Shown here: positions 29,917 through 33,176 of the stretch, piece by piece | Numbering within the stretch: the first letter of the stretch is position 1 | Layout: every line of letters starts with the position of its first letter | From: an uncultured delta proteobacterium | GTDB taxonomy: Bacteria > Myxococcota_A > Polyangia > Polyangiales > Houyiibacteriaceae | Assembly: GCA_963699755.1 (NCBI GenBank) | Contig: CAVOVB010000003.1 | Coordinates: 576,001-640,000 of the forward strand | Reading direction: 5' to 3' | Length of the DNA: 64,000 nucleotides | Position numbers and translations under genes: made by a program | Notes under the pieces: model-generated | What the model was told of the DNA's origin: nothing | Seen by the model: only the letters and a program-made list of their open reading frames with translations | The model's database searches: none

Positions 29917-30633
29917 ATGGGGCTTTTCGATGTGTTCAAGGGAGGTGGCGGCGGGCTGAGCAAGCACGTCGCACGCGTGGCGAACAAGCGTGCGCAGACG
30001 CATGAACGTAGGGAATCGATTCAGGTGCTCGCAAGCGATGGGTCGGACGAGGCGATCCGCGGGCTGTTGACGCGGTTCAGCATCCGCGTCGACCCGAGCA
30101 TCACCGACGGCGAGGAGAAAAACGCCGCGTTCCAAGGCGTCGTCCAACAGGGCGAAGCAGCGCTCGAACCGGTACGCGATTTCCTGCGTTCGTCCGAAAC
30201 CCTGGCCTGGCCGCTCAAGATCCTCCGAGAGATCCAGACCGAAGAGGCCGTCACGACGACCCTGCTCGAGCTTCTCTCGAAGATGGACACCGAATACGAG
30301 CGCGACCCTCAGAAGAAAATCGACCTCATCGCCAGCTTCGAGGAGCACAAAGACCCACGCATCGTCGAAGCCGTGACCCGCTTCCTCGAAGACATGAATG
30401 AAACCGTCCGATTCCACGCCGCCGGCGCCATCCTCGCCCAAGACGAAGCCGAAGCAGCGCTCGAACGGATGACACAGGCGTTTCTAGCTGAAGAAAGCGT
30501 GCGCGTCCGCATGCGCATGCTCGACGGCTATATCGAACGCGACTGGAAGCTCGCCGACGTGAGAGAAGAAGCCACCAAGAAGATGCCCACCGGGTACTCA
30601 CTTGGGAAGAAGGGCGAAGTTCGGAAGAAGTAG
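29917..30633 (+). CDS. HEAT-repeat protein
   Basis: MGLFD start, FLEDMNETVRFHAAGAI and ESVRVR helical repeats. Confidence 0.75.
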   Translation: MGLFDVFKGGGGGLSKHVARVANKRAQTHERRESIQVLASDGSDEAIRGLLTRFSIRVDPSITDGEEKNAAFQGVVQQGEAALEPVRDFLRSSETLAWPLKILREIQTEEAVTTTLLELLSKMDTEYERDPQKKIDLIASFEEHKDPRIVEAVTRFLEDMNETVRFHAAGAILAQDEAEAALERMTQAFLAEESVRVRMRMLDGYIERDWKLADVREEATKKMPTGYSLGKKGEVRKK

Positions 30634-30842
30634 AGCCTGGACACTCCCAAGCCAGCAGGCGGCAGCGCGAGCCCGCAGGGCGAAGCCCGGCGCAACGCGC
30701 CGGCAAGGCGAAGCGGAGCGACCGCCGCTCCAGGGAGGATTAAGAAGAGATGTAGTGGCTGTCCCCCGCACCGACGTGGTCGATCTAGGATCGCCACAAA
30801 ACAAACACGTGGTCTACGCCACAGTGCGAAAGGACAGCCACC

Positions 30843-31868
30843 ATGCAGCACATTGCCATCGATCTAGGACGACGCGAAAGCCAAATCTGTGTCCGCGACG
30901 AGAGCGGACAGATCTTGGAGGAAGCCCGGCACAGCACCAGCGAGCTGCGGTCGTACTTGAGCCGACGCCCGATGGGCTCTCGGGTCTTGGTGGAGAGCTC
31001 GGCCGAGGCCTTTACGGTCGCCGATTGGGCTTCGGAGCTCGGACACGAGCCCCGGGTCGTTCCCTCCATCTTGGTGCCGGCGCTCGGCGTGGGCGAGCGG
31101 GGCCTCAAAAACGACGTGCGCGATGCCCGCAAGCTCAGCGAGATGGACTGCCGGATGGAGGTGCCTTCGGTGCACATCCCCTCGGCCGAGCGCCGCGCGC
31201 ACCAAGCACGATTAACCGCCCGCGATGCGTTGGTGCGGGTGCGCACCAAGCTCATCAATACCGTTCGGAGCTTCGTGCGCATGCGCGCGATTGCCCCGAT
31301 TCGTGCGACACCGCCGACCTTGCCGCGTGCGGTGCGGGCGACCCTTCTCGGCACGCCCGAGGGCGTGCCGGACTATCTGGAGGCCTTGCTCCAAAGCCTC
31401 GAGCACCTCAATGCGCAGATTCAGCAGGCCGACCCCGCGCTACGCGAGGTGGCGCATGGCGAGCCGGTGTGCCGACTGCTGATGACCATGCCAGGGGTGG
31501 GACCGGTGACCGCGCTGAGCTTCGTCAGTGCGATCGACGATGTCACGCGCTTCGAAGATGCGAGCCGCTTGACGTCGTACTTGGGGCTGGTGCCCGGAGA
31601 GCGCACGACTGGCTTCAGGACGCGCCGCACGGCGATGACCAAGGCAGGACCGAGTCGGGTGCGCTGGACGCTGACGCAGGCAGCCTGGACGCTGGTGCGT
31701 GTGCAGCCCGACTCGCCGCTCGGGCAATGGTACGAGCAAGTGAGCAAGCGCCGCGGCAAGAAGATCGCCATCAGCGGCTTGAGCCGTCGGATGGCGGCGA
31801 TCTTGTACGCGATGTGGCGAGAGCAACGGCCGTACGACGCGACGCGCGCGGCCTCTCGGCAGCGCTAA
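30843..31868 (+). CDS. IS110-family DEDD transposase / recombinase
   Basis: IAIDLG (D), LVESS (E), KNDVRDA (D,D), LMTMPGVGPVTA, SYLGLVPGERTTG, KKIAISGLSRRMA. Confidence 0.95.
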   Translation: MQHIAIDLGRRESQICVRDESGQILEEARHSTSELRSYLSRRPMGSRVLVESSAEAFTVADWASELGHEPRVVPSILVPALGVGERGLKNDVRDARKLSEMDCRMEVPSVHIPSAERRAHQARLTARDALVRVRTKLINTVRSFVRMRAIAPIRATPPTLPRAVRATLLGTPEGVPDYLEALLQSLEHLNAQIQQADPALREVAHGEPVCRLLMTMPGVGPVTALSFVSAIDDVTRFEDASRLTSYLGLVPGERTTGFRTRRTAMTKAGPSRVRWTLTQAAWTLVRVQPDSPLGQWYEQVSKRRGKKIAISGLSRRMAAILYAMWREQRPYDATRAASRQR

Positions 31869-31879
31869 GCAAGCCCCAA

Positions 31880-32036
31880 CAGCTCTGGTCTGCGCGGCAG
31901 ACCGCCGGACCGCACCTCTGTCCGGAGACGAAGACCACGGCCCCACCTGTGTGCCTCGAGCACCGGCTTACGAATGTGGCTCGTCGACGGACCTTCTCCT
32001 GTGCCTCGAGCACGCATAGTCGATTGCGCCAGAGCG
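31880..32036 (+). ncRNA. Candidate bridge RNA / seekRNA of the IS
   Basis: Closing stem GCTCTGG(31882-88)/CCAGAGC(32029-35), two 5' hairpins, and two 50-nt-periodic loop units whose variable segments match the IS ends and flanks. Confidence 0.75.
31937..32028 (+). repeat. Two-copy 50-nt tandem unit ACGG-N9-T-GTGCCTCGAGCAC-N7-CGAWTGYG
   Basis: GTGCCTCGAGCAC occurs at 31951-31963 and 32001-32013 with conserved flanking motifs at identical offsets. Confidence 0.9.
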
Positions 32037-32276
32037 AGGTCCCGGCCCAAGCCCGCAACCCCATCTCTCTCCCGGACCCGGGTGCCCGGACACGTCTGTG
32101 CTGGACAGCAAGGCCACTACATAGTCGGGTGGGGGTGGGTGGGCGGTGCAACCAAACTTCACCAGCCCCCAAGCCAAGCAACCCCCCCACATCACATCCG
32201 CCGCAGCTTCCTCGAGCAGCGTCGCAGCTGTCGCGTCTTTTTTCGCGTCCCGGTACGTCCCCGTTCGGGATTGCGC

Positions 32277-33176
32277 TCAGTCGGTGGTCTTCATCTTCGG
32301 TGGCAACACGAAGATCAGCCCGACGGTGAACATGCTGTTGAACTGCCTCAGGCGGTCGGCGCTGTCGATCTGTCCGTCGTCGTTGTTGTCGGTGCCGCTG
32401 GTGTTGTACTTGAAGGGGATGCCTCGCCAGCGGAGGGCGATCCCTAGGAAGTCGCGGAAGAAAGCGTTAAACGAGACTCCGAAGGAGGGTGCGATGACCG
32501 TACGGCTGGAGCGGGCCTGCTGGCTGTCGAGACAGCCGGGATCTTGCGGGGTGCTGGCCCCGAGCGGCACGCAGTACTGCGGCGTGGTTAGCGAGTCACG
32601 CCGGATTTCGGTATCGGCTCGCTCCTCAACGCCCACGAACGCCGCACCCACGAAGAAGTCGAGGTCCGCGTCGAAGAAGACCTTCTGGAACATCGCGAGC
32701 TTCCCGCGGAAGGGCATGAAGTGAGCCTCCACACCAGACCACCAGTTCAAGCGAGCGATCTGATCGGGGTAGCTCTCACGGCTTGGCAGGTCCAAGCGGT
32801 TCGCATCTCGCGTGACGCCCTTCGCCTGAATCTCCTTGGTCAGGTTGGTGTCGAGCTTCCCGACCGAGTACCCGCCCCAGCCGCCGATGCCGAACCAGTC
32901 CACGAAGTGGAAGCGAAGCTCGCCTCCAACGATCAGCGAGCGAGCGTATTCGTCACCGATCGTGAACGCGAAGAACGGCTCGACGTGCAAGCGGTTCTTG
33001 CGCCAGAGCCTGAGCTTCTTCACCGCATCGGCCCCGGCCAGCGGTCCGCTTACGTGTACGTCCTGAGCGCTCGCCGTGCCCGCGCCCTCGCGCAGGCCGT
33101 CGCCGAGGACGAGGCAGAGCGCCAGAGCCGCCCAGATGGCGATTCGCAAAAGCGTCTGATGTGCGAGCTTCATCAT
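32277..33176 (-). CDS. Myxobacterial outer-membrane beta-barrel protein (gliding GltA-like)
   Basis: Signal peptide, amphipathic beta strands, PFRGKLAMF and C-terminal GLIFVLP. Paralogue of the adjacent gene, near the glt cluster. Confidence 0.75.
   Translation of the reverse strand: MMKLAHQTLLRIAIWAALALCLVLGDGLREGAGTASAQDVHVSGPLAGADAVKKLRLWRKNRLHVEPFFAFTIGDEYARSLIVGGELRFHFVDWFGIGGWGGYSVGKLDTNLTKEIQAKGVTRDANRLDLPSRESYPDQIARLNWWSGVEAHFMPFRGKLAMFQKVFFDADLDFFVGAAFVGVEERADTEIRRDSLTTPQYCVPLGASTPQDPGCLDSQQARSSRTVIAPSFGVSFNAFFRDFLGIALRWRGIPFKYNTSGTDNNDDGQIDSADRLRQFNSMFTVGLIFVLPPKMKTTD

Follow-up and report, generated by a model that had tools for sequence, protein, structure and literature searches.

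The segment 30743..32125 of the window (the whole stretch of 64,000 nucleotides that was analysed; coordinates follow its numbering, and all features of the element lie on its forward strand) is very probably an intact-looking insertion sequence of the IS1111 type, whose 3' non-coding region is predicted to encode a bridge RNA (seekRNA) with unit 1 as the target loop and unit 2 as the donor site. Sequence comparison lends direct support to the limits of the element, to a conserved fold of the RNA, and to covariation of all four guide strands with the DNA that they would read. Transcription, binding by the recombinase, the circular intermediate, and the chemistry of strand exchange would follow by analogy with characterized systems. 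An RNA-guided IS110/IS1111 recombinase with a downstream RNA had already been proposed in an earlier note on this DNA, and the proposal is borne out by structural, guide-to-flank, and guide-to-end covariation in 20 relatives.

The ends of the element are fixed by 17 intact copies, in the same genome, of the REP-like repeat that it interrupts. Since the bases to the left of 30743 and to the right of 32125 are adjacent in these copies, the element spans exactly 30743–32125 (1383 bp), and it is present as a single copy in the genome. The interrupted repeat is about 120 nt long, with at least 17 intact copies in the genome. Its left half (30646..30742), which constitutes the left target half, ends in GGATTA and is 84–94% identical to about 20 genome copies; its right half (32126..32207), delineated by alignment of the repeat copies, constitutes the right target half and begins with CGGGTGGGG. 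The 17 empty sites read ...TA|CGGG..., with GGATTA before the insertion point in eight, GGACTA in seven, and GGAATA and GCGTGA in one each. Thus, the empty site GGATTA|CG, as reconstructed in the earlier note, is correct. Comparison with the same 17 copies revealed no duplicated base at the junctions. Two of the relatives described below occupy the identical place, in the same orientation, in the same repeat. The repeat itself consists of several small GC-rich hairpins, one of which, an internal one, displays compensatory changes between genome copies; an Rfam 15 scan of four intact repeat loci returned no meaningful family for it. In one RNA-library contig set the repeat reaches a very high summed depth, a value that is not interpretable.

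The termini of the element comprise a 7-nt extension on the left, AGAAGAG (30743..30749), which covariation predicts to be bound by the 5' guide of unit 2, and a 3-nt extension on the right, AGT (32123..32125), as delimited by the empty-site reconstruction. Internal to these lie the subterminal inverted repeats ATGTAGTGGC (30750..30759) and GCCACTACAT (32113..32122), which match each other perfectly over 10 bp. All 20 relatives with a known left end begin with AGA, followed by four variable nucleotides and the subterminal repeat. This corresponds to the organization described for IS1111 elements, namely subterminal inverted repeats with 7-nt left and 3-nt right extensions (PMC11187229 section 4). 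As a side observation, the 7-mer CATCTCT at 32062–32068, 3' of the RNA scaffold, is complementary to 30747–53 at the left end, which may be due to chance.

The recombinase gene (30843..31868) codes for a protein of 341 aa with the Pfam domains PF01548 (E 2.9e-7) and PF02371 (E 2.4e-25), and scores 212 bits against the NCBIfam model NF033542, 'IS110 family RNA-guided transposase' (cutoff 140). Its best matches in the PDB are ISCro4 and IS621, with E of about 1e-10 (2.5e-10 for 8wt6). It is 23.8% identical, over 99% of its length, to an ISEc11-family protein, and plasmid-borne relatives reach at most 32% identity. The translation features GLVPGERTTG, an instance of the GL-P----S/TG motif of the IS1111 C-terminal domain, which has been described as an IS1111 feature (PMC11187229 section 6). 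The non-coding stretch downstream of the gene measures 257 nt vs 100 nt upstream; a longer non-coding region downstream is the IS1111 arrangement (PMC11187229 section 6; PMC11208160 section 12). Five defining features are thus found together: the DEDD (RuvC-like) N-terminal and PF02371 C-terminal domains along with the 330–350 aa size class; subterminal repeats of the 7–17 bp class with 7/3 extensions; the longer non-coding region downstream; the GL-P----S/TG motif; and site- and orientation-specific insertion without duplication. On these sequence features, the window element is assigned to the IS1111 group within the IS110 family.

Statistics computed on the single sequence were null. The z-scores of the fold were −0.66 for the whole 3' region, −1.65 for the span picked out in the earlier note, and −1.04 for 31913–32039, none of them above chance. 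Exact 6-, 7-, and 8-mers common to the element and either the empty site or the circle junction were not above 500 shuffles, which justifies the caution with which the earlier note had treated its short matches. An Rfam 15 scan of 30400–32500 gave no meaningful match and no family that fits the RNA. With these statistics null, the case must be made from relatives. Searching 401 genomes of the order with the protein recovered 41 with a match at E ≤ 1e-40, among them the window's own genome and an unpublished one, left out afterwards; a separate search of genome contigs for related loci gave 3 loci with 1 full-length relative, added to the set. We oriented 31 loci and compared their 3' regions. 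Of these, 21 with a recognisable scaffold and with recombinases 38–100% identical to that of the window element, namely this element and 20 relatives, were aligned (alignment A1). The ten loci outside A1 are L031, which has no RNA region, L033, in which unit 2 is disrupted, and L051 and L053–L059, which are too divergent for the anchors. Once the 20 homologues are compared, the signal from predicted guides and fold is far beyond chance.

A four-helix model of the RNA on A1, in which a closing helix (P1) is combined with two helices that make up the unit-1 arm and with the hairpin of unit 2, has 90.0% of its 419 cells paired, compared to only 28.7–41.4% when the helix partners are slid by 1–3 columns. 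Compensatory changes occur in 16 of the 20 scaffold pairs across the 21 elements, and none of 500 shuffles reached the observed scaffold scores. P1 is formed by CTCTGTC (31916..31922) and GCCAGAG (32028..32034), corresponding to A1 columns 2–8 and 145–151, and five of its seven pairs display compensatory changes; in the window element six of the seven pairs form, with one U.C mismatch. The earlier note had instead closed the structure with a 7-bp stem GCTCTGG/CCAGAGC. The two strings are indeed at 31882 and 32029, and the two accompanying hairpins at 31887–903 and 31905–25, but this stem is private to the window element and absent in L049, the closest relative still carrying the RNA, and the helix of the family is 31916–22/32028–34. 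The hairpins fared differently from each other: GGTCTGC-GCG-GCAGACC (31887..31903), which lies upstream of the scaffold, is kept in L049 with one compensatory change from U-A to C-G, whereas the hairpin at 31905–25 uses a strand of P1, is excluded by it, and is absent in L049. Given their absence from L049, the stem 31882/32029 and the hairpin 31905–25 were both rejected as family features.

RNAalifold proposed an alternative pairing of 31920–24 with 31988–92, whose UCC/GGA is invariant in 21/21 sequences; it closes the unit-1 arm and is also part of the minimum-energy fold of the window element. This pairing overlaps P1 by three bases. Since the covariation of P1 sits in its outer columns, P1 and UCC/GGA may coexist as a three-way junction. 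Within the closing helix, the 5' strand of the unit-1 arm (31927..31939), composed of GACGA, a bulge, and CCAC(G), pairs with 31976–79 and 31981–85, with compensatory changes in all 9 pairs. The 3' strand of the arm together with the invariant GAWT motif occupies 31973..31985, the G, A, and T being invariant columns in A1. A CGGA linker (31988..31991), with GGA invariant in 21/21, precedes the donor 5' guide. Unit 2 is capped by the hairpin GTGC-CTCGA-GCAC (32001..32013; A1 columns 115–118 with 127–130), for which 90.5% of the cells are paired and two pairs display compensatory changes. The unit-1 cap (31951..31963) is an exact copy of this hairpin. The account of this motif in the earlier note is accurate: GTGCCTCGAGCAC occurs at 31951–63 and again, 50 nt on, at 32001–13, and the identity extends to 14 nt with the preceding T. 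Beside the loop, the unit-1 arm further features a conserved UGA bulge and an invariant GAWU (A1 columns 18–20 and 83–86), which may be a kink-like protein-binding motif.

We built a covariance model, R1, from A1. On the window's genome it finds one site, the window RNA itself (E 6e-25), and it also finds sites beside recombinases that are only 34–38% identical. When run on 13 loci it matched 7, one of which is a training sequence, and L031 was without a match. On an ISEc11 locus it gave no match, the best score being 3.8 bits.

The guide strands of unit 1 flank its capping hairpin. The 3' guide, GGCTTA followed by CG (GGCTTACG, 31965..31972), carries the sense of the top strand GGATTA|CG, so it would pair with the bottom strand; in the window element it matches at 7/8 positions, with one C/A mismatch. 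The 5' guide CCCCACCTG (31941–49), which together with the following T spans 31941..31950, is complementary to the top strand of the target, A|CGGGTGGGG, with one G:U, amounting to 8/9 Watson–Crick pairs against its own flank. Both matches had been correctly described in the earlier note. The two overlap at the insertion point, the overlap in the window element being A|CG.

Across A1 these strands track the flanks of their own elements. For the 5' target guide, the 14 nt that follow the arm helix were reverse-complemented and set against the 9 nt with which the right flank begins, in 20 elements, L039 having been dropped as its flank is cut by a contig end. The mean match was 7.75/9 to the own flank vs 4.42 to the flanks of other elements, and a score of at least 8 was reached by 13/20 own pairs vs 4/380 cross pairs, two of these four being the window element with L049, which have a common target. 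For the 3' target guide, the register was fixed: the 6 nt that immediately precede the invariant CGAWT were set against the 6 nt that end the left flank, in 17 elements, four being dropped with left flanks missing or cut. Here, the mean match was 4.18/6 to the own flank and 1.57 to others, with 9/17 own pairs scoring at least 5. In both tests, none of 20,000 permutations reached the own-flank sum. The guides of L049 match CGGGTGGGG and the GGACTA variants of the same repeat perfectly. A relative in genome G185 is present as five identical 1617-bp copies (L036 and L061–L064); the right-flank 9-mer matched by the guide is the same in 5/5 of them, and the left flank is only loosely conserved, which suggests that the right target half dominates the choice of site. 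In a contig of an RNA library (run X17, at 30742), a variant of the repeat reads CAGGTGGGG after TA, a perfect complement of the 5' target guide of the window element; behind GGATTA, this variant has no copy in the window's own genome.

The 3' guide of unit 2, CATAGT followed by CG (CATAGTCG, 32015..32022), carries the sense of the right end (32120–25) and the first two bases of the flank (32126–27), the same string recurring at 32120–27. In 20/21 elements the 5-mer that precedes the invariant CGA is identical to the terminal 5 nt at the right end of the same element (15 ATAGT, 5 ATACT), and the remaining element has a single mismatch between this guide and its right end. The 5' guide, in the register supported by the family, lies at 31994..32000 and would pair with the left end AGAAGAG (30743–49). 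In the window element the pairs are 32000:30743, 31999:30744, 31997:30746, 31996:30747, and 31995:30748, with a C.A mismatch at 31998/30745 and a U.G wobble at 31994/30749. In the best register, base 1 of the left end faces the U that lies nine (sometimes ten) bases downstream of the invariant GGA. The earlier note had set CTTCT (31993–97) against AGAAG (30743–47). Both strings and their complementarity are present, but that register was rejected, with 41/100 Watson–Crick pairs over the family vs 60/100 for the register 3 nt away.

Position 4 of the left end, an A or a T, stands opposite a T or an A in 15/20 elements (8 A:T, 7 T:A). Over positions 4–7 of the left end, the unit-2 5' strand matches its own element at a mean of 2.65/4 and others at 1.79, a sum reached by none of 20,000 permutations; the choice between registers 9 and 10 was made separately for each pair, and the elements are related. 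Pairing of this strand is imperfect across the family (3–6 of 7), with a conserved mismatch opposite left-end position 3, and the covariation of the donor 5' guide is the weaker one. The strands of unit 2 thus correspond to both ends of the element, as those of a donor site should, though imperfectly at the left end. Unlike unit 1, whose site is an internal loop, unit 2 sits where P1, the unit-1 arm, and the hairpin belonging to unit 2 meet and is therefore a site in a three-way junction, which fits the remark of Durrant et al. that the donor nucleotides of IS1111 elements tend to sit in a multi-loop (PMC11208160 section 12). The earlier note had assigned unit 1 to the target and unit 2 to the donor and had anticipated that the guides would covary with flanks and ends in homologues. 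Such covariation was found in A1 (0/20,000 permutations), and the tracking of own flanks and own ends across relatives, along with a guide order that fits IS1111, upholds the assignment.

No core dinucleotide common to donor and target was found at the junctions of the 20–21 elements. The left end starts with AG in 20/20, and the right flank starts with CG in 13/21, the others being CA (three), TG (two), CC, GG, and GA; the swapped arrangement of donor and target cores occurs in no element. Hence, a common core read by all four guides, as in the IS621 model, is not seen here. In the 3' strand pattern guide-CG-AWTG, the dinucleotide of unit 1 is CG in 18/21 elements, AG in two, and TG in one, and that of unit 2 is CG in 21/21. 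As the unit-2 3' strand carries the right end plus CG and there is no common core, this donor strand spells the integrated right junction and not the circle junction. If the pattern reflects mechanism rather than scaffold, recombination in this clade might do without a core dinucleotide common to donor and target, strand exchange would depart from the IS621 model, and the RNA may be adapted to reading both the circle and, for excision, integrated junctions; we regard this as unlikely.

If it were true, the presence of one and the same hairpin in both loops would also point to loop caps that can be exchanged as modules. The guide-CG-AWTG 3' strand is the only likeness of the two units that extends across the family: the longest string common to both is 14 nt in the window element and 4–9 nt in the 20 relatives. 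Thus, the 'unusually symmetric loops' of the earlier note do contain a real repeat, but the exact copy of the hairpin is private to the window element. The simplest reading of its symmetry is a recent internal copy of the cap hairpin; as to the duplication that had been offered as its origin, an ancient event may or may not have taken place.

The proposed RNA is a bridge RNA or seekRNA of a published kind, a class known since 2024, to which it adds nothing categorical; the novelty implied in the earlier note does not hold, and the NCBI model already names the protein family an RNA-guided transposase. It resembles the seekRNAs of ISEc11, ISPa11, ISKpn4, and ISPst6 (Siddiquee et al. 2024, PMC11187229) in the location of the RNA downstream of the gene, the 7- and 3-nt extensions, the lack of target duplication, the guide order, the overlap of the matches at the insertion point, and a long form of about 150 nt. 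In the IS1111-type seekRNAs tested, the match to the top strand lies 5' of that to the bottom strand, and the order is reversed in the IS110-type (PMC11187229 sections 9, 12); a copy of ISEc11 has the same layout at L070 1818–27 and 1844–52, with the target taken from Table 1 of PMC13604230. A REP target is also that of ISPa11 (PMC11187229), and a right target half starting with CG is listed for ISPa11 and ISKpn4 in the same Table 1. The window element differs from ISEc11 in its recombinase, which is that far diverged from the ISEc11-family protein, and in its RNA, as R1 has no match to that of ISEc11. Since Rfam has no family for it and R1 misses the ISEc11 RNA, homology to an experimentally proven seekRNA can be read from layout only. 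Further, a donor-reading site is supported here by covariation, whereas PMC11187229 describes target matches only.

The likeness to the IS621 bridge RNA (Durrant et al. 2024, PMC11208160; 8WT6-9) lies in a single RNA with the target site 5' of the donor site, two guide strands per site reading opposite DNA strands, a REP-type natural target, and a recombinase of the DEDD + PF02371 type. Unlike in IS621, the window RNA is at the right end and not the left, the guide order within the loop is reversed, the donor site is in a three-way junction and not an internal loop, the subterminal repeats are long, and the donor AG and target CG provide no common core dinucleotide. In the location of the RNA and of the donor site it agrees with Durrant et al. 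(2024, PMC11208160), who predicted an RNA in the right end of 93% of the ISfinder IS1111 elements and placed the donor nucleotides in a multi-loop. The worth of the present data lies in the set itself: 21 natural elements that have one scaffold in common but differ in target, and in which all four guide strands are readable. Little is on record about donor sites within a three-way junction in elements of the IS1111 type, and the set could help define the guide code and core rules of the IS1111-type bridge recombinases, which are less studied than IS621.

Taken together, these features suggest how the system might operate. The 3' non-coding region would give rise to a bridge RNA of about 120–155 nt, folded as a three-way junction of the closing helix 31916–22/32028–34, the arm 31927–85, and the small hairpin 32001–13. 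The internal loop of the arm would be the target-binding loop, with 31941–50 pairing with the right target half CGGGTGGGG on its top strand, and 31965–72, with the sense of the left target half plus CG, pairing with the bottom strand. The junction strands beside the hairpin 32001–13 would form the donor-binding site, in which 31994–32000 pairs with the left end AGAAGAG and 32015–22 reads in the same sense as the right end CATAGT plus CG. If the system behaves like IS621 and ISEc11, the element would be excised by the recombinase as a circle, whose abutted ends would create a promoter, TGGACA-17 nt-TAGAAG, for transcription of the recombinase gene and of the RNA that follows it. Recombinase subunits would bind this RNA, which would then hold the circle junction and a copy of the repeat together for strand exchange.

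The promoter-like arrangement rests on a −35-like hexamer, TGGACA (32102..32107), situated 17 nt before T(32125)+AGAAG(30743–47), a putative −10 element that would form only in the circle junction. A TTGAC-type hexamer with at least 4/6 matches to the −35 consensus lies 17 (in some, 18) nt before T+AGAAG in the computed junctions of 19/22 relatives. A junction promoter has been described for the IS1111 family (PMC11187229 section 4), and the −35/−10 geometry of the window element would fit such a promoter of the circle junction. Six RNA-library runs contain small shares of the element. Among the contigs of three such runs, one is identical to 31750–31900 and the others are parts of the gene, with 31911–32081 uncovered; contigs of this kind cannot show the ends of an RNA, and their coverage speaks neither for nor against transcription. 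No end-to-end joints of the element were found among the contigs of these three runs.

Other explanations of the region have to be weighed against the bridge-RNA reading. The matches could be due to chance and the hairpins an ordinary terminator or REP-like structure behind the gene, a reading to which the shortness of the matches and the non-significant k-mer and fold statistics of the single sequence lend some color. The family-wide compensatory changes and the own-versus-other guide tests contradict it, there is no U-tract, and the positions of the guides are fixed within a conserved scaffold; we find it scarcely credible. Another alternative, in keeping with a short seekRNA model, retains guiding by unit 1 alone. 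The closing helix and unit 2 would then serve as a protein-binding scaffold or a processing signal, and recognition of the ends would rely on the subterminal inverted repeats and the target halves next to them instead of on pairing with the RNA. Indeed, Siddiquee et al. reported that an 82-nt RNA with target matches only was sufficient, and that the donor flanks had to match the target (PMC11187229 sections 10, 12). The near invariance of the unit-2 3' strand, with two variants among the 21 elements, and the imperfect pairing of its 5' strand (3–6 of 7) point the same way. Yet the ATAGT and ATACT variants follow the right end in 20/21 elements, and position 4 of the left end flips between A and T with its partner in 15/20, neither of which is predicted by a scaffold alone, making this alternative quite improbable.

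It is possible, if doubtful, that the element is a bridge-RNA insertion sequence by descent that has become an inactive relic with a non-functional RNA. It has remained single-copy although 7 identical empty sites are free in the genome, and the mismatches in its guides, the one in the closing helix, and the private alternative stem upstream would all be in line with decay; thus, the window element may be inactive. Against this, the gene has a full-length reading frame that can be aligned with those of the relatives from one end to the other, none of the scaffold helices has been lost, nor has either end or the promoter geometry, and the RNA-library contigs contain the repeat variant that matches the 5' guide perfectly. 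A decayed, RNA-less sister copy in another genome of the genus, lacking the RNA region and the right end, also bears on the relic reading, in its favor. This sister, L031 (G245, 1302–2511), is 84% identical in DNA and sits in the same place of the same repeat; its similarity stops at the equivalent of 31853, with the RNA region and right end deleted and the 3' end of the gene fused to the right half of the repeat. A second IS110-family gene is present in the genome that carries the bridge-RNA element, outside the window (G000:C7:11383-12393, − strand); it is 37% identical and has one in-frame TGA.
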